A stretch of 64,000 nucleotides of DNA, taken from positions 7,895 through 71,894 of the forward strand of contig CAJKFS010000001.1 in assembly GCA_905199225.1 (NCBI GenBank). Direction: 5' to 3'. How positions within the stretch are numbered: the first letter of the stretch is position 1; each line of letters opens with the position of its first letter. A program made the position numbers and the translations under genes. The DNA comes from an uncultured Collinsella sp. (lineage in GTDB: Bacteria; Actinomycetota; Coriobacteriia; Coriobacteriales; Coriobacteriaceae). This document shows, one piece after another, positions 1 to 9,789 of the stretch. The notes beneath the pieces were generated by a model. That model did no database searches and was not told the DNA's origin. It was given only the letters and a program-made list of their open reading frames with translations.

Positions 1-60
1 GTATGACCTTCCGCATGCCGGCCTCCCATCATTTGTGATGCTGTTTTTGTGATGGGCGAG

Positions 61-105
61 GAGCACACCCTACACCATCTCATAGAGATGGTGTAGGGTG
101 TGCTC
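61..105. repeat. Perfect inverted repeat (hairpin): GAGCACACCCTACACCATCTC - ATA - GAGATGGTGTAGGGTGTGCTC, a 21-bp stem with a 3-nt loop
   Basis: Read directly from the sequence; the two arms are exact reverse complements. The right arm is also the start of the duplicated element (copy A). Confidence 0.9.
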
Positions 106-190
106 CTGTAATACAAAAGTTCTTTGAGGGCTTTAGGGCGATGCTTTCAGTTGGGGAGCGTTGTCTTTTTTGAGTGTAATGTCTGACATA
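85..190 (+). repeat. Copy A of a ~105-bp duplicated intergenic element, located ~220 bp upstream of the Abi_2 gene
   Basis: Aligns at ~80% identity with 5190-5300 in the same orientation (GAGATGGTGTAG...CAATACAAAAG...GCTTTA.GGGCGA.GCTTTC...TTTTTT...TGTAATGT). Confidence 0.8.
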
Positions 191-410
191 TTTCCCAAGT
201 GTTGTTTCATTTGCTTGATAGACAAGGGTGTCTGAATTTGGGTTTTATGGTTTGCTGCTCGACTCAAATATTTAACGTTGATTTTTGGATCGATAATCAG
301 TAGACTATCTGAACAGCGGTATTGACGCGGATAACCTACGGGTCCCGCGTCCTGCAGAAAGGCGGCTGTCCTTCTTGGGATGGCTGCCTTTCTTCATTTG
401 AGGAGCCTCA

Positions 411-1352
411 ATGACAGCAAAGCCTTTCTTGCCCATTGACGATCAAGTCAGATTGCTTAAGCAAAGGGGTTTGACTGTTGACGACAACACGGCTCGCATT
501 CTGATGAGCGAGGGTTATTACTCGATTGTTAACGGCTATAAGGATCCGTTTATTGATATGAGCTTAAGCTCGAAGTTCAATGAGGACCGGTATCGCAGCG
601 GCGCAACCTTTTCGGACCTATATTCATTGTTTACGTTCGATAGGGAGTTGAGGTCTCTAACATTTAAGTTTCTCATATTAGCCGAGGCCAAAATAAAGAC
701 CGCGATCGCGTACACCTTTTCGAATGTTCATCGTGGTCCCAATGACTATTACTTGCAGTCTTCATTTTGTACTCAAGACGAATATTCTGCGACGGGAAAA
801 GACGAGGCGAGATACGCCCGTGAGATTTCCAATCTGACGAGCATACTTAGCCGCAGGGCATTAAAAAGTAAATCTGAATTTGTTGCTCACTATCGCAATG
901 AATATGGTTCGGTGCCGCTGTGGGTTCTGGTTAATGATTTGACGTTTGGAAACATGGAGCATTTCTACAATCTGATGAAGCCCGGCGAGCGGCGTACTTT
1001 TTGCAAAATGATTGTAGATGCAACTGGGAAAACCGGATCGAAGAAAAGCGGTTTCTTTAGCGAAAAGGCCGCTCAACTTTCAATTGAAACACTCGTTAAA
1101 TTCCGTAACGTTTGCGCCCATGACGAGCGTCTTTATTGTGCTATGGTCGGAGGGCGCAAGAACATTAACTACATCCAGATGGTGTGGATGCTCAAACGTT
1201 ATCTGACCGAGATTGAATTCAGAACGTTTGTCGAAGAGTTGACGGCTCTGCTGAGTAGGTATTTGAAAACCTACGCGATAAAGCACATACTCGACCAAAT
1301 TGGATTTGTTGAGCTGCTTCAAAAGTCACAAGATGCCACCCTGTTCGATTGA
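411..1352 (+). CDS. Abi_2 family (AbiD/AbiF-like) abortive-infection protein
   Basis: The N-terminus KPFLPIDDQVRLLKQRGLTVDD...GYYSIVNGYKDPF matches the conserved Abi_2 N-terminal signature. Local GC is low (~45-48%). The ATG at 411 is preceded by GAGGAG. Confidence 0.85.
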   Translation: MTAKPFLPIDDQVRLLKQRGLTVDDNTARILMSEGYYSIVNGYKDPFIDMSLSSKFNEDRYRSGATFSDLYSLFTFDRELRSLTFKFLILAEAKIKTAIAYTFSNVHRGPNDYYLQSSFCTQDEYSATGKDEARYAREISNLTSILSRRALKSKSEFVAHYRNEYGSVPLWVLVNDLTFGNMEHFYNLMKPGERRTFCKMIVDATGKTGSKKSGFFSEKAAQLSIETLVKFRNVCAHDERLYCAMVGGRKNINYIQMVWMLKRYLTEIEFRTFVEELTALLSRYLKTYAIKHILDQIGFVELLQKSQDATLFD

Positions 1353-1594
1353 GGCTGAGGGCGTCGATACGGTTGAGTTGTCCTGCAATTGATATCCAAA
1401 TGATTGCACGACAATCTCTATCGAGTATCCAACTTTGCAGAATTATGAGCTGTGGTCAATGAGATGGTCGATGAGTTCGACGGTGGAGTGGTCACTATCT
1501 TTTACATTGAAGCCTAAGGCGATGGACATGCTTTAGATGGGACCGTTCTCACGTGCTGCTGGTTCATGAAGAGTTTTAGACAATTAGAATTAGT

Positions 1595-3421
1595 TTGGAC
1601 ATGGCTTATTTATCAAGGGGGCTGGCAAGAATGCGTCGCAATATCTTTCTGGGTTTTGGTTGTAGCGGCTATCGCTCCTTTTTCGGAAGTGAAGACTCGC
1701 GCTTCGGTCCATTTGATAAAGTCCAAGTCCTAGCGGGACAGAATAACTGCGGAAAATCGTCTCTTGTTGATTTTGTTATTAAGGCAATGACATCCATTGA
1801 CCAAAGAGGGGAAATCGCCCGCAATCGCTATCCCTTCACTAGGGAAGATGCGCCCTTGCTGCTGAAATCAGCGGGGGCAAATGACCCGTTGACTATTTCC
1901 CTGTGTATAGATCGATCTGTTTTATTGGAGTCCTCCAGTTTAAAGCGACCTTCTGGAGATAAGCGGATGGCAGAGCTTTCTGAGTTATTTTCCCGTCCGC
2001 CGTATATATCAAACGATGGAGATGGCGTTTGGCTTGACTTTCTAACGGCGTCGCCGGCTGCTGGGTCGTCTTTAGTAAATGATCTGATTGCGTCTTTCTC
2101 GCAGTATAAAAGTGCAGGCTTGTCTATGGACCTGAATCGCTGCTCCCTTGATCCTCTCCAACACGGCGGTGATGACGAATCGTGCTATGCCGACATAATC
2201 CGCAGTATTGTCCCGTGGGGGAATATCCCTCGCTTTGTTAAGGTCGATGCAATTAGGTCGGTTGAAGACGATGATTTTCCAGATCGCGATGTCGATCTTT
2301 GCAGCGGACGCGGTCTTCCAACAGCTTTGCTTCGCTTGTTTAATCCGGAGCGTTCAAATCATGCTCGGGCAGAAGCGCGGCTGAATAAGCTGCAAGGATT
2401 CGTGCGCGATGTCATGAACGACCCCCGTGCCTCTCTGCTTGTTTCGCATGAAAGCCATGAGATATCTCTTAAGACTTCCGATGCCGATTACCTGCCGCTT
2501 GAATCTTTGGGTACGGGAGTTACGGAGCTCGTAATTCTCGCTTCGATTATTGCTTGCAACGACAACAGCATTATCTGTATTGAAGAACCCGAAATTCATC
2601 TGCACCCGGCTCTGCAGGCGAGGTTTATGAAATACCTTCTCGAGGACGATTCAAACCGATTTATCATCACTACGCATTCTCCAACTGTTATTAACTATCC
2701 TGGCGTTCAGGTTGCCCATGTGTCTAAGACAAATGGAGTTTCTGGATGCAGACAGCTTGACGGTCTGGGTTGTGCTCGCGATTTGCTTGATGATTTGGGG
2801 GTCAAGCCCTCCGATCTGTTGCAAGCAAACTTTGTAGTGTGGGTTGAGGGGCCCTCGGACCGCGTGTACCTGAATTATTGGATTAAGAGATGGTCTGATG
2901 AGCATAACATTTCGCTCGAAGAAGGTATTCATTACAGTGCAATGATTTACGGTGGCAAGTTGCTGAATGCACTAGATGCAAGTGCTGGCGAAGATATCCC
3001 CGCGGAGCTGATATCCCTCTTTAGAATCAATACTCATTTCTGCGTGCTGATGGATTCTGATAAGAAATCCTCTCATTCGAGACTTAATTCAACCAAGCGA
3101 CGCATTATTGACGAGTGCACACAGAACGGCGCAATGTCGTGGGTTACCTGGGGCGCAACAATTGAGAACTATGTTCCAGAAGATGTGCTTGCAGCTTCGA
3201 TTGAGAAATGTTATTCGGGTAAAAAATGGGAGCATCCCCTTGGTGACAGATTTATTTGCCCGCTGAGCTTTACGTTTAAGGGTGGGAAAACGCATCCAGA
3301 TAAAATTAGGATTGCAAGGACTGCCTGTGGGGCCGGTTTTTCTCCGTTGGGTGATGCAATGAAACGCGTGGCAGAGTTGTGCGATCTGATATGTGCGGCC
3401 AATGACGTTGAAACGCAGTAG
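1595..3421 (+). CDS. OLD-family nuclease with an N-terminal ABC/AAA_15-type ATPase and a C-terminal TOPRIM domain
   Basis: Walker A GQNNCGKSS. OLD/AAA_21-type Walker B/D-loop IICIEEPEIHLHP. TOPRIM glutamate motif VVWVEGPSDRVYL and DxD motif LMDSDKK. The 608-aa length is similar to P2 Old and GajA. Confidence 0.8.
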   Translation: MDMAYLSRGLARMRRNIFLGFGCSGYRSFFGSEDSRFGPFDKVQVLAGQNNCGKSSLVDFVIKAMTSIDQRGEIARNRYPFTREDAPLLLKSAGANDPLTISLCIDRSVLLESSSLKRPSGDKRMAELSELFSRPPYISNDGDGVWLDFLTASPAAGSSLVNDLIASFSQYKSAGLSMDLNRCSLDPLQHGGDDESCYADIIRSIVPWGNIPRFVKVDAIRSVEDDDFPDRDVDLCSGRGLPTALLRLFNPERSNHARAEARLNKLQGFVRDVMNDPRASLLVSHESHEISLKTSDADYLPLESLGTGVTELVILASIIACNDNSIICIEEPEIHLHPALQARFMKYLLEDDSNRFIITTHSPTVINYPGVQVAHVSKTNGVSGCRQLDGLGCARDLLDDLGVKPSDLLQANFVVWVEGPSDRVYLNYWIKRWSDEHNISLEEGIHYSAMIYGGKLLNALDASAGEDIPAELISLFRINTHFCVLMDSDKKSSHSRLNSTKRRIIDECTQNGAMSWVTWGATIENYVPEDVLAASIEKCYSGKKWEHPLGDRFICPLSFTFKGGKTHPDKIRIARTACGAGFSPLGDAMKRVAELCDLICAANDVETQ

Positions 3422-3447
3422 GTGAATTATCGACCTGTCAATCATGA

Positions 3448-4476
3448 TTGAGGGGTGCGGCAGCTTTGGACAATAGCGTTGCGTATGAGTTGTATCTATA
3501 CACGATTGATACTTACAAGAGACTTGCCAGCACGCTTCCACTTGATGAGAGGCTTGCCCGTTTCGATCCTAATTGCTTTTCGAAATTAGGTGAACTTGAG
3601 CTTGGGGATGAAGCGTTTGCTGCGGTCTCGGTGCGTCTTATGCTGCAGCGCAAGTATTTTGTGCGCGGAAAGGACTTGTTTCTCAGGAGGCTGCTCAAGT
3701 CTGCTGAACGGGACTTCGCTTCTAGTAAGGATGTGATTGAATCCTTGCTGGATAGTCTTGATGCCCTTAATAGCCAATCAATTGAGTTTGCCTTTGGGGA
3801 CGGCAAGGTTGTCGAGGGTGCCTTTGCAAACGTCGAAGATGTAATGTACGGAGTGCTGATGCACGCGGATATAACGCGGGCAGAGAACCTCGTCTCTGTT
3901 CCCGAACACATGAGACTGGTCGCCCTGGCACCGTATATCGCGGGGAGAGAACAGATTTTGCTGCAGTTCTCTGAGTTCCTTCTTAATGCTGGAATCAAGC
4001 CGCTATCGAGGAAAGAGGAAGCATCGGCAACTGTTTCGTTTGAATCAAAAGACGCTTGTCGCCAGATTGAGAATTCGCCATTTTGGCGAAATCTTCGCGG
4101 TAGAGATCTTGGGGATGAGGACATTGAGAAAAAGGTTCAGCAAGGTTCGCGCGATGATTTAGAGATAATCACCGCTGTTCTACTATTCAAAGAGGCGCTT
4201 GGCAGAAGGCCCCTGGACCCCAGCGAACTCAATTCCCTTGTCGCACGGGAGACCATTTTCAGATGGGGTGATTATTTGCAAGCCGCCGAGCTTTTGGAAG
4301 GGGATTATGGAATGAGCACTCTTGTTCGGTATCAAGAGGACGGCTCGGCCCTCGTAAAGCTTCTCCCAAACGTTCGAGAACCGTTTCTGATTGAGGGACC
4401 GCAGCTCATCGAGGGCGGGCATGAAATAGTTCTGGTGAAGCGGAACGGCATTTGGAAGATATGGGCTATGAGGTGA
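3448..4476 (+). CDS. Hypothetical protein of 342 aa with no recognisable motifs, co-oriented 26 bp downstream of the OLD-family gene
   Basis: Long ORF on the same strand with a TTG start. Codon usage and GC resemble the upstream OLD gene. I could recognise no catalytic motif. Confidence 0.55.
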   Translation: MRGAAALDNSVAYELYLYTIDTYKRLASTLPLDERLARFDPNCFSKLGELELGDEAFAAVSVRLMLQRKYFVRGKDLFLRRLLKSAERDFASSKDVIESLLDSLDALNSQSIEFAFGDGKVVEGAFANVEDVMYGVLMHADITRAENLVSVPEHMRLVALAPYIAGREQILLQFSEFLLNAGIKPLSRKEEASATVSFESKDACRQIENSPFWRNLRGRDLGDEDIEKKVQQGSRDDLEIITAVLLFKEALGRRPLDPSELNSLVARETIFRWGDYLQAAELLEGDYGMSTLVRYQEDGSALVKLLPNVREPFLIEGPQLIEGGHEIVLVKRNGIWKIWAMR

Positions 4477-4699
4477 CTCTTTTCATCTAGTTTGGACGGC
4501 CTTTTATCCATTGGCGGGCGACGTATCACTTCTTTTGCAATTTAACAGCCACATAGCGAGTACGGCCACGCCCAGTCATATGATTCCCGGCGCTAAATAG
4601 CAAATCACTGACGTGGGCGCATGGACCGCGTCTTCGAGAGTCGCAACAGTTGACGAGGAATCGTCGCGTAGGGATATAAAGAATCTGGTGAGTGCGTTA

Positions 4700-5135
4700 G
4701 CCAGAGATGGCTTTACCGGGTTGCCGATGGTGGAGCCGGGCGCTGGAAAAGTTCTTTGTCTTGTGACGATATGTTAAGATCGATACCGTTCAGTTCCCGG
4801 ATCCGCGGGTCGGTGTAGTTGGCGTTGTAGATTGTCGTGTGCACGTCTTCAACAAAGCGGCTTCGCCTGTTTTCGGTTTCTTGATGGCATGGAAGCTCAT
4901 CTTTTCTTGTTCCCCCAGGTCTCTTAAATTGCCTCGTCGAGAAGTTCTACAAAGAGCCTACTGTGACTTGCCAACTCATACACTGCAGTATAGCTTGCGC
5001 CCGCTTTCGCCTCGTGCCAGGCAAGCGGATCGTAGTAGGCGAGAACATTCAATACTGGAAGAAGGCATTGATATGGGAAGTGCCGTGCCTTTTTGCCACC
5101 AAAATGCCCACCGTGCTTAATGGCGTAATTCATAA
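4700..5135 (-). pseudogene. Probable decayed gene remnant in frameshifted fragments
   Basis: Two minus-strand protein-like fragments in different frames (...AYYDPLAWHEAKAGASYTAVYELASHSRLFVELLDEAI, then ...RFVEDVHTTIYNANYTDPRIRELNGIDLNISSQDKELFQRP). No intact ORF longer than 100 aa exists across 4480-5440. Confidence 0.3.
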
Positions 5136-5189
5136 GATTTGTTATGGTCTCGGCCGGCTAGTTACGGGCTGATTTCCTCAATCAAGGGG

Positions 5190-5300
5190 AGATGGTGTAG
5201 AGTATTTTCCTACAATACAAAAGCTCTTCGGGAGCTTTAAGGGCGACGCTTTCTGTTAGAGAGTGTTGCCCTTTTTTCATGCATGTAATGTGCGACGTGC
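5190..5300 (+). repeat. Copy B of the ~105-bp duplicated intergenic element, located ~145 bp upstream of the AbiL-like ATPase gene
   Basis: Same alignment as copy A. It lacks the left hairpin arm that copy A has. Confidence 0.8.
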
Positions 5301-5443
5301 TTGCTAAACGCCATTCCGGCAATGGGATGGTCGAGTGTGGGCGGTTTGCACCTTGCGCCTGCTGTCATTGGTGTAGCAAGCACTTGATTTAGCCTACTTA
5401 AAGTCTATAATCAAAGAAAAACTCTGATATACCTTTTAAAACA

Positions 5444-6682
5444 ATGAAAAGAATGTTGAGTACCATGCTTTGCCAGTTCACCTTCAGGAACTATAGATCC
5501 TATCGCGACGAGACCGAGCTTTCCATGCAGGCAACATCGATGAGGGAGTTCGAGCGTTCCCTCATAGAGTGCCCTGACGGGCAGAATTTCCTTCCGGTAG
5601 CTGCGGTGTACGGGCCTAACGCTGGCGGCAAGTCTAACCTGCTCGAAGCTCTTGACTATATTCGTTCGGCGGTGGCAAGGCCGATCAGATTGTTGTCTGC
5701 CAGCACTGATGTGCCAGAAGGTAACCGCTCTTCGATACCCCGTTGCTCTGCGTTCGAGTTCGATGACGTGTCGGCTGCTAAGCCCACCGAGTTCGAGCTC
5801 TACTATCGCGCAGGTGAGCATGAGTACCGCTATGCCCTGTCCGTGCATGCGGACGAGATTGTGTCCGAAGGACTGTGGCGGCGCAAATTGGGGGCGTCAC
5901 GCACAGCGATGCTGTTCGAGCGCGAGGGCACAGGGGTTGAGCTTGGTCCCACTCTGCGTAAGCTTGTCACGGCTGCGAGATTCAACCCGAGCCTGCCGTA
6001 CCTGTCGTTTCTCTGCATCAACTTTGACGCGCCGGTGGTCAAGGAGGCTGCCAGCTGGTTTCTTGACGGGGTGTTCCTGAACTATAACAGCTCCTATCTG
6101 GAGCAGATGCTCGAACAATTGCTCGACGAGGATGACTCACCCGAGGTCACGCGTTTTTTGTGCGCCGTTGATGTGCGTATTGATGGCTTCAGAGTGGAGA
6201 GGGCGCCGGAGTGGCGCGGCCAGCGCGTCTTCGTGAGGCACGAGGTGGGCGACAAGGCGTACGAGCTGCGTTTATCCGAGGAATCTGCCGGAACCCAGAA
6301 GCTCATGGGGTTGGCTGCGTATCTGATGACAGCGCTTGAGCGTGGTGGCACCGTTGTGGTAGACGAGCTCGACGCCAAACTGCACCCGAAGCTTCTTCGC
6401 TATGTGATTCTGCTGTTTAAGGATCCTGAGGTCAACAAGAGTGGCGCGCAGCTCATCTTCTCGTCCCAGGATGTGTCAACCATGCGAAACGATGTGTTCC
6501 GCCGTGACGAGATATGGTTCGCTGCGCGCGGCGAGGGGGAGGCGAGCCAACTGTGGTCTCTCGCCGACATCCACGAGGCAAACGGTAATCTGGTAAGCAA
6601 GAACGCGGCTCTCGACAAGCAATACCTGTCTGGTCGCTACGGCGCCGATCCGTATCTCACCCGCATCGAAGAGTGGGATTAG
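5444..6682 (+). CDS. AbiLi-like AAA_21/AAA_15 ATPase (ATP-binding partner of an RloB-type protein)
   Basis: Walker A YGPNAGGKSN. Walker B/D-loop VVVDELDAKLHPKL. The stop codon lies 1 nt before the start of the RloB-like gene. Confidence 0.8.
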   Translation: MKRMLSTMLCQFTFRNYRSYRDETELSMQATSMREFERSLIECPDGQNFLPVAAVYGPNAGGKSNLLEALDYIRSAVARPIRLLSASTDVPEGNRSSIPRCSAFEFDDVSAAKPTEFELYYRAGEHEYRYALSVHADEIVSEGLWRRKLGASRTAMLFEREGTGVELGPTLRKLVTAARFNPSLPYLSFLCINFDAPVVKEAASWFLDGVFLNYNSSYLEQMLEQLLDEDDSPEVTRFLCAVDVRIDGFRVERAPEWRGQRVFVRHEVGDKAYELRLSEESAGTQKLMGLAAYLMTALERGGTVVVDELDAKLHPKLLRYVILLFKDPEVNKSGAQLIFSSQDVSTMRNDVFRRDEIWFAARGEGEASQLWSLADIHEANGNLVSKNAALDKQYLSGRYGADPYLTRIEEWD

Positions 6683-6683
6683 C

Positions 6684-7304
6684 ATGCTGGCGAAGAAGTC
6701 GAAGGGCTGGCGTAGCGGCAAGCGCGAGGGCAAGGAGACCGAGCCTCGCTACTTTGAGGGTGTGCGTGCGGCGTTGGGCGCGGCGAACGAGCGTAAGGTT
6801 GCCATTGTCGTTAAGGGGACCGGCAAACACACGCTTGACCTACTTGACTTCGCCGTCGAACACTGCCGCTATGCGCCCGAGACATTCGACCATGTGTGGC
6901 TCGTGTATGACAAGGATGACTTTCCTGCGTCCGACTTTGACGCGATGGAGCGCAAATGCAACGAGCTCTCCGACGGTTCGAGGACCTTCCATGCGTTGTG
7001 GTCGAACCCCTGCTTCGAGCTGTGGCCGCTTCTGCACTTTCGCTACACGACCGCGCATATGTCCGCGTCCGACTGCCAGCATGTCCTCGCGCAGGAGATG
7101 TCGAGAGACCTGGGCATCGAGTACCGCAAGAACTTGGACGGGCTGTTCGAGGTGGTGGACGGCAAACGAGGCGAGGCATTGCAGCGTGTTGGGCGCCTCG
7201 TCACATACCATAGGGGGCTGGGTAACGTTAAGCCATCTGCGCAAAACCCTGCAACCAAGGTGGGCGAAATTTTCGATGTAATCGGGCCGTATCTGGTTGG
7301 CTAG
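6684..7304 (+). CDS. RloB-like / AbiLii-like protein (divergent TOPRIM)
   Basis: N-terminal GKETEPRYFEG motif, a central WLVYDKDDF motif, and SNPCFELWPLLHF. These are the characteristic RloB-family motifs. This frame is chosen over the overlapping frame at 6673. Confidence 0.85.
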   Translation: MLAKKSKGWRSGKREGKETEPRYFEGVRAALGAANERKVAIVVKGTGKHTLDLLDFAVEHCRYAPETFDHVWLVYDKDDFPASDFDAMERKCNELSDGSRTFHALWSNPCFELWPLLHFRYTTAHMSASDCQHVLAQEMSRDLGIEYRKNLDGLFEVVDGKRGEALQRVGRLVTYHRGLGNVKPSAQNPATKVGEIFDVIGPYLVG

Positions 7305-7650
7305 TCGAGTCTGTGGATTGGCTTTCCGGTTAGGGCGATTGGCGGATTATGATGCGCGATTGCAAATCCGGTGCGTAGGAGAAGTGCGGAGAAAAATCGA
7401 AACTCGCCGAGCATAGCCCGATTTCAGGCAACAAAACCGCAGGTCGCGGGTGCCCAAAACTAGGGTCTGGTCGACAGGTCTCGGTTTTTCACCCCACTTC
7501 CGAATTGGTCGCTCATTTAGCACTCTTGATGTCCCCACATCCTCTAAAAAAGTTCTTAAAACAGCCTTAAAGGCGTTCCAACTCGCGTTGACAGCGTAAA
7601 ATACGCATGTTTGACTATGACAGAAGTGGATTTTAGGGGAGGAGTACGCC

Positions 7651-9789
7651 ATGGAGGTGCTGGTTGTTGGCAACACCGCATATGTTGACGATGACTTTTG
7701 TGCCAAGGCGTTCCCCGGGGACCACGTTAAGGTCGTCGCTGCCGCGGAAGCGCGCCGCGACGAGTCGTCGCCCCATGCCTCGTGGAAAGAGCTCCTCCAG
7801 CACCTGGATCAGGCCTACGAGTTCGACCGCGTGGTTTACCTGTCTAATTACCTTACCCCGCATACCGATTCCGTGGGCGATATCGAGCTGCTGCGCTCGG
7901 TCTTTCGTACGTGCGCGGGTCGCCGGGTCCAACTGCTGTATGTAGCGGGGCCCGCGGGTGCCGAGGGTGCCGCCGATGCCGCGGGGCGAACGGGCAAGGG
8001 CATTATCGCGCACGCAGCCAACGACCTGTGCCGCTACTACGCTGCTCGCGAGGGCGTTCAGACCAAGATCCTGCGCGTGCCGTTCCTCTATACCGCGTCT
8101 GCCGCGCTGGAGGACCCGTTTTTGGTGCCGATGTTCGACGCATGCTCAACCGGATCGGCCGCTCTGCAGGGCGCGCAGGATGCGGCGTTTCCCCTGCTGT
8201 GTGCCGAGGAGCTTTCGGTGCTGGTACGCCGTATCTTCGACAGCTGGAATGCTAACTTTGAGACGCTCGACGTAGTCGATACCTTCCATCACACGGTGGG
8301 TGAGGTGGGCGACGCCCTCAAGGCGCTGTTCCCAGGGCTCTCAGTTGCCTATGGCGATTCTGCCGGCTACGCCCTGCCCGCCAGCGACGTCGCTCGCGTG
8401 CGCTATGGCTGGTTTCAGCGCTACGACTTGCTGCGCGACCTCTCGACCATTCAGGCTCGCTGGGATGCTGGCCGTGCAAAGAAGGTCAACCCCTTGCGCG
8501 CGGCCATCGACCGCATTCAAATGCGCACGCTGCCTGTCAAATGCCTGGAGACGGCAGCCGCCTGGGTGCTCTTTGAAGTGCTGGAGCGCTTGTTCTCCCA
8601 ATCGACCCAGCTCAACGTGCTCGATTATCGCCTGCTCTACGTGGTGCTGATCGGCACGCTGTATGGCTTGGACTTTGGCCTGGTTGCGGCGCTGCTGGCG
8701 TCGGTGGGTTTGGCTGCGAGTTACTTTACTCTGTACGGCTATACCTTCCAGGGCCTGTTCTACGAGCCGTCCAACTGGCTGCCGTTTATTGCGTACTTTG
8801 TTGTGGGTGCCGTGTGCGGCTATGTGCAGCTGCGCAACAGCGAAGCCATTAGGGCGGAGCGCGATCAAAACGAGCTCGTGCGCAACCGCAATACGTTCCT
8901 TACGCAGCTCTATCACGACGCGATCGAGGACAAGCGTGCGTACAGGCGCCAGATCGTGGGTCGCCACGACAGCTTTGGCAAGATCTTTGCCGTGACGCAG
9001 GAGCTCGACGTGCTCAACCCACGCGACATCTATCGCAAGTGCTGCGAGCTTCTGGGCGAGATCCTCGAGAACGATTCGGTGGCGATCTACCATGTTTCGG
9101 GCGGGGCATTTGCACGCCTGGTGGCGGCAAGTCCCGCGATTGCCGAAGATGCCGCACGTTCGCTCACGCTTGAGCAGCTTGCACCTCTTTTGAGCGACGG
9201 GGGTCGTTCGAACCTGTGGGTGAACCGCGAACTGATGCCGGGGCTTCCCATGTTTTGTTATACGATCGAGCGCGATGGGGCACCCGCCGTGTTGATCTTT
9301 GTGCGTCGCGCGGCCGAAAACCAAATGACCCTCTATTACCAAAACCTGTTCCGCATCTTGTGTGGCCTGGTCGAAAGCGCGCTGGGCCGTGCCTTTGACT
9401 ATGAGGCGGTGGCACAGGATAAACGCTGCGTTGACGGCACTTGCGTGCTCAAGCAGGCTGCCTTTGGCCAAGAGCTCGCGGCCGAGCAGGCGCTGGCAGA
9501 TGGCAAGATGGGGAGTTTTTTGCTCCTGCGCGTGGTACCAGGCATGGAGCCTATCGGCGAGCTGGTGGGCGCGATTGGGTCGGCGATCCGCGAGAGCGAT
9601 GCGGCGGGCCTGATCGACGGCGACGTGCTCTACCTGCTTATGCGCCAGGCAAAGGCATGCGATCTGCCCATTATCCGCGAGCGCCTGAGCGAAAAGCAGA
9701 TTGAGGTGGAGCCCGTCGACGGCGAGGATATCGTGGCGCTGTTGCAGCACATCTCTTACACCGGTGACGGTGAGGGGGGTGCCGCTTGA
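7651..9789 (+). CDS. pelD: PelD-like c-di-GMP receptor: N-terminal degenerate SDR/epimerase-like domain, transmembrane helices, and a GAF / degenerate-GGDEF C-terminus
   Basis: RESD(x5)DGDVL gives an intact I-site RxxD five residues before a degenerate GG(D/E)EF position. Hydrophobic helices occur near residues 330-400. The N-terminus (VLVVGN..., ...RVPFLYTAS) looks like a Rossmann/epimerase fold without GxxGxxG. It is the first gene of an operon containing pelF and pelG. The ATG is preceded by GGGGAGGAG. Confidence 0.6.
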   Translation: MEVLVVGNTAYVDDDFCAKAFPGDHVKVVAAAEARRDESSPHASWKELLQHLDQAYEFDRVVYLSNYLTPHTDSVGDIELLRSVFRTCAGRRVQLLYVAGPAGAEGAADAAGRTGKGIIAHAANDLCRYYAAREGVQTKILRVPFLYTASAALEDPFLVPMFDACSTGSAALQGAQDAAFPLLCAEELSVLVRRIFDSWNANFETLDVVDTFHHTVGEVGDALKALFPGLSVAYGDSAGYALPASDVARVRYGWFQRYDLLRDLSTIQARWDAGRAKKVNPLRAAIDRIQMRTLPVKCLETAAAWVLFEVLERLFSQSTQLNVLDYRLLYVVLIGTLYGLDFGLVAALLASVGLAASYFTLYGYTFQGLFYEPSNWLPFIAYFVVGAVCGYVQLRNSEAIRAERDQNELVRNRNTFLTQLYHDAIEDKRAYRRQIVGRHDSFGKIFAVTQELDVLNPRDIYRKCCELLGEILENDSVAIYHVSGGAFARLVAASPAIAEDAARSLTLEQLAPLLSDGGRSNLWVNRELMPGLPMFCYTIERDGAPAVLIFVRRAAENQMTLYYQNLFRILCGLVESALGRAFDYEAVAQDKRCVDGTCVLKQAAFGQELAAEQALADGKMGSFLLLRVVPGMEPIGELVGAIGSAIRESDAAGLIDGDVLYLLMRQAKACDLPIIRERLSEKQIEVEPVDGEDIVALLQHISYTGDGEGGAA

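Follow-up and report, generated by a model that had tools for sequence, protein, structure and literature searches.

OLD-family proteins are divided into classes by their gene context: Class 1 enzymes are encoded by single genes, Class 2 enzymes occur with GajB, Class 3 enzymes belong to retrons, and Class 4 enzymes to PARIS (PMC10568477, PMC7049728). Some of the single-gene Class 1 enzymes are anti-phage on their own (PMC10568477, PMC12392090, PMC13261556). In the present work, we analysed a stretch of 64,000 nucleotides (nt) from an uncultured Collinsella sp. (assembly GCA_905199225.1, contig CAJKFS010000001.1, positions 7,895 to 71,894, forward strand), hereafter the window. Near its left end, an OLD-family gene encoding a protein of 608 amino acids (aa), here OLD608, is followed on the same strand by a gene of another family, which we call the partner gene:

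1595..3421, + strand: OLD-family gene with ABC ATPase and predicted TOPRIM parts, open reading frame (ORF) of 608 aa from TTG at 1595
3422..3447, + strand: spacer of 26 nt between the OLD stop codon TAG, which ends at 3421, and the partner TTG at 3448
3448..4476, + strand: partner gene, ORF of 342 aa from TTG, or of 336 aa if the start is the TTG at 3466

Both ORFs and their spacing of 26 bp on one strand, on which an original prediction of a two-gene defence module had been built, were confirmed by the ORF listing and the coordinates. With moderate confidence, we interpret the locus as two separate single-gene modules that are juxtaposed, and probably co-transcribed, in a repeat-bounded cassette of a Collinsella defence island.

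Distribution of the OLD and partner genes

The co-occurrence survey, which had been set beforehand as a check of the predicted module, goes against a conserved module beyond a shallow Collinsella clade. An OLD gene directly followed by a partner gene was found in six genome loci (L009-L013, L016), in which the OLD proteins are 85-100% and the partner proteins 88-100% identical. The pairing is confined to a clade with at least 85% identity in OLD and at least 82% in the partner, and five of the six loci correspond to the same AbiD...AbiL island. The idea of a module stood as far as adjacency and persistence in a locus with other flanks (L013) are concerned, but the two genes were seen paired in near-identical Collinsella islands only.

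The partner is truncated by frameshifts at differing positions in at least three clusters (P0025, P0027, P0028), and P0023 diverges near the C-terminus. In L016, a 1-nt deletion (around 8680) breaks the partner and leaves OLD intact (97% identity), which argues against the partner as an essential antitoxin for OLD. These frameshifts could be genuine decay or assembly errors.

OLD homologues with 44-60% identity were present in five metagenome contexts. A six-frame hmmsearch with the partner profile, used for all loci with OLD homologues, could not detect a partner-like ORF within ~5-6 kb in any of the five. The gene downstream of OLD is an insertion sequence (IS) element in L018/19 (OLD 60%), a 355-aa LPxTG-like wall protein with signal peptide, followed by an AbiL-like pair, in L020-22 (OLD 58%), and a 126-aa PD-(D/E)XK-like fragment in L023/24 (OLD 45%). 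In L025/26 (OLD 44%), a gap of 900 nt precedes a DUF4238 gene. Full-length OLD homologues with 27-41% identity were also found on 31 viral or prophage contigs of IMG/VR (L113-L143); no partner-like ORF was detected within ~5-6 kb, and the genes downstream of OLD are heterogeneous and often lie on the opposite strand. These homologues make up a divergent Class-1-like OLD lineage, of which gut Coriobacteriia and prophage contigs hold many copies.

Similar to the OLD homologues, the partner family occurs apart from the other gene. Partner-family genes were found in ~16 other contexts, none of which adjoins an OLD608-type gene, and a search with the OLD608 profile among all ORFs of at least 100 aa in 80 metagenome partner loci revealed no adjacent OLD608-like gene. 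The sole match in these 80 loci was weak (E=4e-5) and corresponds to a 452-aa ORF located 2.5 kb downstream (L052/53).

In the clade of partners with 67-70% identity, the genes in L001-3 and L015 are stand-alone, and the gene upstream of the L015 partner encodes an AAA_14-DUF4143-TIR protein on the opposite strand. Upstream sequence is common to this clade over 50-100 nt only, which suggests that the partner carries its own short 5' region. A remnant OLD gene was looked for upstream of stand-alone copies (L001), and none was found. P0299 and P0153 are stand-alone too; the gaps on their upstream side measure 477 and 582 nt, and their surroundings include integrase, AIPR, HTH-M78 and HEPN genes (HTH, helix-turn-helix). 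The same holds for a hypothetical partner homologue of 330 aa on the Enterococcus faecium megaplasmid pKO1, which has IS elements upstream. L017 (partner 43%) holds a frameshifted pseudogene adjoined by other ABC ATPases.

Other copies lie close to genes of various types. In L004 (60% clade), a spacer of 4 nt separates the partner from an upstream pair of unannotated genes that overlap each other and encode 399 and 390 aa; the latter gene (1540-2712) encodes a HEPN-like LRNAFVHY motif. In L035, a 347-aa membrane protein is encoded upstream of the partner and a 333-aa HEPN-like protein (IRNCLAHY, 6030-7031) 10 nt downstream. The partner is found 44 nt after an HNH nuclease gene in L063 and 64 nt after an AbiU/AIPR gene in L072, and it overlaps an Eco57I-like type IIG methylase by 4 nt in L078. 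Further neighbours in the metagenome loci include a 363-aa zinc-ribbon-like protein, Schlafen AlbA_2, NUDIX-like and SIR2-STALD-TIR proteins, and proteins without assignment. HEPN-type neighbours recur around the family, namely AbiD in the window, AbiU/AIPR (L072, L027), a HEPN gene (L029), and the genes of L004 and L035; the HEPN-like proteins of L035 and L004 had no Pfam or PADLOC match. Tandem partner paralogues were looked for among the neighbours of similar size, and none were found.

Two members are linked to HTH proteins. P0154, the nearest outgroup (35%; L144 3571-4599), lies 6 nt after a gene for a 141-aa XRE HTH protein (3139-3564) with an integrase beside it, and residues 1-100 of P0160 form a weak HTH-like N-terminal extension (Pfam E=0.006; BLAST E=0.025). 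This linkage resembles a toxin-antitoxin or abortive infection (Abi) layout.

Two apparent fusions were rejected. The P0254 ORF (L031 350-1810) has an OLD-like_TOPRIM match (2.8e-17) followed by the partner core. It was not accepted as a clean fusion of OLD TOPRIM and partner, because the upstream ATPase frame contains a stop, only ~104 partner residues are present, and the partner C-domain is absent. Its C-terminus corresponds to the N-terminus of an unrelated 523-aa gene that is found two genes downstream of the partner in L035. P0254, seen on a single Logan contig, is probably a deletion-derived chimeric pseudogene. In P0178, the N-terminal extension corresponds to the C-terminus of the upstream 363-aa gene, that is, a frameshift fusion.

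The OLD gene

The product of 1595-3421 is, judged by its sequence, an OLD-type protein with an ABC ATPase and a predicted TOPRIM. The following motifs were located, with conservation scored over 28 homologues of 41-91% identity:

1736..1762, + strand: Walker A GQNNCGKSS with lysine K54; G, N, N, G, K and S are invariant, and Q is nearly so
2579..2608, + strand: Walker B and D-loop IEEPEIHLHP; E-E-P-E-I-H-x-H is invariant
2669-2680, + strand: H-loop TTHS
2837..2860, + strand: first TOPRIM motif VWVEGPSD (E418, D422); WVEGPSDR is invariant or nearly so
3053..3061, + strand: TOPRIM DxD, D487-S-D489; D-S-D is invariant
3158-3172, + strand: E-N-Y inside TIENY, after the DxD; E-N-Y is invariant

An ATG at 1631 is preceded by an AAGGGGG Shine-Dalgarno sequence and would give a protein of 596 aa, the length at which most homologues are called. 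The true start is likely this ATG rather than the TTG at 1595.

Pfam assigns the protein to AAA_21 (6e-19) and AAA_15 (3e-18), and the PADLOC models AriA, NsnB, PtuA and GajA match with 1e-20 to 1e-14, all via the ABC ATPase core. In the comparison of the 28-homologue profile with PDB, matches were obtained for AriA (3e-11), five GajA structures (~2e-9), the OLD protein of retron Eco8, and Thermus scotoductus OLD (9e-5). The IEEPEIHLHP motif aligns to the Walker B region of AriA and GajA, and the GajA structures align to the profile from Walker B through the TOPRIM glutamate. All motifs on which a complete OLD architecture had been predicted are present and conserved in the 28 homologues; the Pfam model OLD-like_TOPRIM (PF20469), on the other side, stays below threshold on the window protein (E=0.06). 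This model is also sub-threshold in 14 of the 28 family members, with a best E of 0.002. Since the curated model is sub-threshold, the TOPRIM assignment rests on the conserved motifs and the GajA alignment.

The partner gene and its predicted fold

Besides the TTG at 3448, a second candidate start of the partner gene is the TTG at 3466, which is preceded by GAGGGG. L013 has an ATG where the window has TTG 3448.

Searches of the window partner against Pfam, PADLOC, NCBIfam, PHROGs and PDB sequences gave no match, and no helicase, reverse-transcriptase or P-loop signature was found. This agrees with the earlier statement that the protein lacks recognisable helicase, reverse-transcriptase, nuclease and ATPase motifs. 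The database searches and the predicted fold described below also bear out that it is neither a GajB helicase nor a reverse transcriptase, nor any of the listed defence components. A word-indexed search revealed 31 close clusters, each at least 60% identical and all unnamed, and a full profile search gave 154 representatives at E<1e-3, fifty of them at <1e-30, mostly of 335-360 aa. Sixty diverse members of the family had no consistent match in Pfam, PADLOC or NCBIfam. No viral source was detected in GenBank phages or IMG/VR.

An alignment of 60 sequences, with 19-70% identity to the window partner, shows R68, K69, Y134, H139 and F247 as invariant, and G135, L138, D141, E168, W213 and W336 as nearly invariant. 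Recurring motifs are L-x-R-K-Y, E-D-x-x-Y-G-x-Y-L-H-A-D, S-P-Y-W-x-N-L, and W-G-D-F-S. The AlphaFold model calculated from this alignment has a predicted local distance difference test (pLDDT) score of 95.7 and a predicted template modelling (pTM) score of 0.86. A model based on 19 close homologues only was unusable (pLDDT 47), which was remedied by the 60-sequence alignment. The following features were assigned:

3472..3987, + strand: N-terminal all-helical domain, residues ~9-180, by AlphaFold secondary structure
3643-3660, + strand: LQRKYF with R68-K69, family-invariant columns
3835-3870, + strand: EDVMYGVLMHAD with Y134, G135, L138, H139 and D141, invariant or near-invariant columns
4114..4473, + strand: C-terminal NTF2-like (SnoaL/cystatin-like) domain, residues ~223-342, by predicted structure
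4264-4275, + strand: WGD(F/Y) family motif inside the NTF2-like domain

The C-terminal domain is modelled with an alpha+beta cone fold, in which helices pack on a curved beta-sheet, as in the NTF2-like superfamily. For the helical N-terminal domain, Foldseek against PDB and BFVD returned NTF2-like hits or noise only and no convincing structural match. No relevant publication on an NTF2-like defence component turned up in the literature. The partner family is undescribed; as far as the evidence goes at present, it has no specific link with OLD.

Genomic neighbourhood

Two further sets of defence genes and a direct repeat surround the pair:

85..200, + strand: left copy of a direct repeat of ~115 nt, a perfect hairpin followed by a terminator-like stem-loop; no chance matches expected, two found
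411..1352, + strand: AbiD / Abi_2 gene (HEPN-type abortive infection), Pfam Abi_2 1e-38, PADLOC AbiD 1.5e-44
5189..5305, + strand: right copy of the direct repeat, ~80% identical to the left copy, 5104 nt from it and just before AbiLi
5444-6682, + strand: AbiLi (AAA_21 ATPase), PADLOC AbiLi 7e-83
6684-7304, + strand: AbiLii (RloB), PADLOC AbiLii 5e-17, Pfam RloB 5e-30

The gene order is AbiD, OLD, partner, ~970 nt without annotation, AbiLi and AbiLii. AbiD is the upstream neighbour of OLD within the same repeat-bounded block, and the AbiLi/AbiLii pair lies downstream, beyond this block. With AbiD upstream and AbiLi/AbiLii downstream, the OLD and partner genes belong to a defence island, which occupies the window's edge.

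The guanine plus cytosine (GC) content is 44.6% in AbiD, 48.1% in OLD and 50.0% in the partner, versus 61% in the rest of the window; the shared composition of OLD and partner that had been noticed at first sight thus holds. GC climbs from ~48% to ~58-61% near nt 5400-5500, and the AbiLi/AbiLii pair has 57-59%. The ~115-nt repeat brackets exactly the low-GC block of AbiD, OLD and partner. Both copies are present in L012, and the left copy in L016. No Rfam family or tRNA matches the repeat. It may mark the border of a cassette, or it may be a site of recombination within a hot spot of defence genes.

Neither the spacer nor the last 1.2 kb of the OLD gene contains terminator-like or promoter-like sites. 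The two genes are close enough for co-transcription, as had been suggested, and are probably co-transcribed, as far as spacing and sequence signals indicate. The gap becomes 44 nt if the partner starts at the TTG 3466.

Past the partner stop, the ~710 nt at 4477-5188 have no convincing ORF or family match; their first ~180 nt have a counterpart, conserved to 70%, behind the L013 partner. The same LPxTG-like wall protein of 355-368 aa, with a signal peptide, follows both an OLD homologue (L020-L022, 7966-9072) and a partner homologue (L015, 7132-8274), and genes for UDP-glucose dehydrogenase and polysaccharide functions are nearby. The common wall protein and the polysaccharide surroundings point to one Collinsella chromosomal hot spot with variable defence cargo.

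Proposed roles and alternative explanations

Several observations weigh against two independent genes. The gap of 26 nt, the common strand, the common low GC and the lack of a terminator are operon-like. L013 keeps OLD and partner with other flanks, PIN_12 and NTase-like genes upstream and GntR downstream; as the pair is present in six loci and these flanks are changed, OLD and partner travel together within the shallow clade. In L006-8, a partner with 67% identity lies ~600 nt after a different, TOPRIM-like ATPase of 532 aa. This ATPase (L006 303-1901) has a TOPRIM-like VYLEGPTDEKYF motif, matches PADLOC PtuA (4e-31) and AriAB (3e-23), and is 21% identical to OLD608. L031 shows another OLD gene beside a partner-family gene, its TOPRIM part juxtaposed or fused with the partner core. 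Lastly, the tight same-strand coupling to nuclease-type genes in L004, L078, L063 and L072 could mean a modular accessory role.

Apart from the last, these points, together with the conservation of the pair in all six related Collinsella genome loci, favour a lineage-specific two-gene system of a new OLD class, in which the partner would be a sensor or regulator that binds OLD, both being needed as in GajA/GajB. We consider this unlikely. The clade is shallow, so the paired loci are not independent observations, and co-occurrence at greater distance is absent in both families. Moreover, L031 is the product of a rearrangement: the N-terminus of a third gene is part of this chimera, and its ATPase region contains a stop. 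The gap in L006 is ~600 nt, and the partner of L016 is frameshifted beside an intact OLD. A bolder version, to which we would also give little credence, is that the partner family is a new and widely exchangeable sensor or regulator, with a novel helical domain joined to an NTF2-like one, that would plug into various nuclease effectors. With the Collinsella OLD, it would then form a fifth type of OLD system that depends on both genes.

The coupling in the more distant loci would fit an exchangeable accessory, either a sensor or adaptor or an NTF2-type immunity protein or inhibitor, that teams with whichever nuclease effector is adjacent (OLD, HEPN, HNH, AbiU or type IIG). Unrelated contexts with tight same-strand coupling to a nuclease-type gene number at least six (the window, L004, L035, L063, L072, L078), but at least seven contexts are stand-alone, and defence islands pack unrelated genes tightly anyway. 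AbiU, Class 1 OLD and type IIG enzymes are established to work as single genes (PMC10568477), and partner frameshifts next to an OLD gene that is intact are not easily reconciled with a role as inhibitor or antitoxin. An accessory of this kind is distinctly unlikely. It is very improbable that the partner has no connection with defence and is mobile-element cargo or a regulatory gene of variable regions: a detectable catalytic family is absent, integrases and IS elements are often nearby, and HTH proteins are associated with the family, yet recognisable defence genes adjoin in almost every context examined.

If OLD and partner are separate single-gene modules, OLD608 would act as a stand-alone, Class-1-like enzyme. 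By analogy with those Class 1 OLD proteins that have been characterised, its ABC ATPase would mediate dimerisation. By the same analogy, ATP binding or hydrolysis would gate a two-metal TOPRIM nuclease, which may nick or degrade invading or replicating phage DNA. The partner family would move as an autonomous gene among the defence islands and mobile elements that Firmicutes and Coriobacteriia of the gut carry, with some members possibly governed by, or fused to, an XRE-type HTH. The partner itself could be an independent Abi-like or toxin-like factor, or a sensing factor. Its helical domain may contribute a conserved polar site with the invariant R-K...Y-G-x-x-L-H-A-D cluster, and the NTF2-like domain may serve in binding or oligomerisation.

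In case the pairing is functional, it would add a new type of partner for OLD beside the helicase, the retron and AriB, and would offer a handle on how OLD nucleases are switched on. Independently of this, the analysis defines the partners as an unannotated family of ~340 aa, which comprises 154 representative clusters and for which a confident model was obtained. Its members recur in Gram-positive bacteria of the gut, in both defence islands and mobile elements, and the family could reasonably be studied by itself.

Comparison with known systems

Compared with NTF2-like proteins such as SnoaL-like proteins, VirB8/TraM-like proteins, the type VI secretion system immunity protein Tai3 and the CaMKII hub, the partner shows 6-23% identity only, and a sequence-family match is absent. 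It differs from them in that its NTF2-like domain is joined to a helical domain of ~180 residues, which has its own invariant motif and is structurally unmatched. Similar to XRE-HTH-linked toxin or Abi modules, P0154 follows an XRE HTH gene and P0160 has a weak HTH-like extension, whereas the window copy is not accompanied by an HTH gene.

Similar to Gabija, in which the Class 2 OLD protein GajA is encoded with the UvrD-like helicase GajB, the window has a predicted ATPase-TOPRIM gene followed by a close second gene on the same strand, and GajA aligns to the OLD protein (E=2e-9). Unlike in Gabija, helicase and P-loop motifs are absent from the protein encoded downstream, which has no helicase or ATPase match in Pfam, PADLOC, NCBIfam or PHROGs; it is predicted to be helical plus NTF2-like, and the pairing is not conserved. 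The locus also differs from OLD-containing retrons: the neighbours of OLD are AbiD, the partner and the AbiL pair, and Rfam finds no retron RNA in window positions 1-8000. In common with PARIS (AriA plus AriB, Class 4), AriA is the best PDB and PADLOC match of the OLD ATPase part. Nevertheless, ATPase and predicted TOPRIM are in one polypeptide in OLD608, and a DUF4435-type AriB is absent; no DUF4435 match was obtained, and the fused-AriAB model covers residues 322-383 only.

The comparison with Class 1 OLD proteins was made by sequence only. OLD608 departs from them in its weak similarity to the Thermus scotoductus enzyme (E=9e-5, ATPase region only), in the sub-threshold Pfam TOPRIM match, and in its location inside a defence island with a tightly spaced gene downstream. 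Like P2 Old, Thermus scotoductus OLD, Vibrio cholerae Class 1 OLD and E. coli YbjD, it has an N-terminal ABC ATPase, a putative C-terminal TOPRIM with the E...DxD motifs, and ~600 aa (PMC7049728, PMC10568477, PMC12392090, PMC13261556). The OLD608 family has no conserved helicase or reverse-transcriptase partner and, like P2 Old, has many homologues on viral or prophage contigs. Across the five metagenome contexts and the 31 viral contigs, the downstream gene varies or lies on the other strand, as is the case for single-gene OLD. With no conserved neighbour and many copies on viral or prophage contigs, the OLD608 family behaves as Class-1-like.

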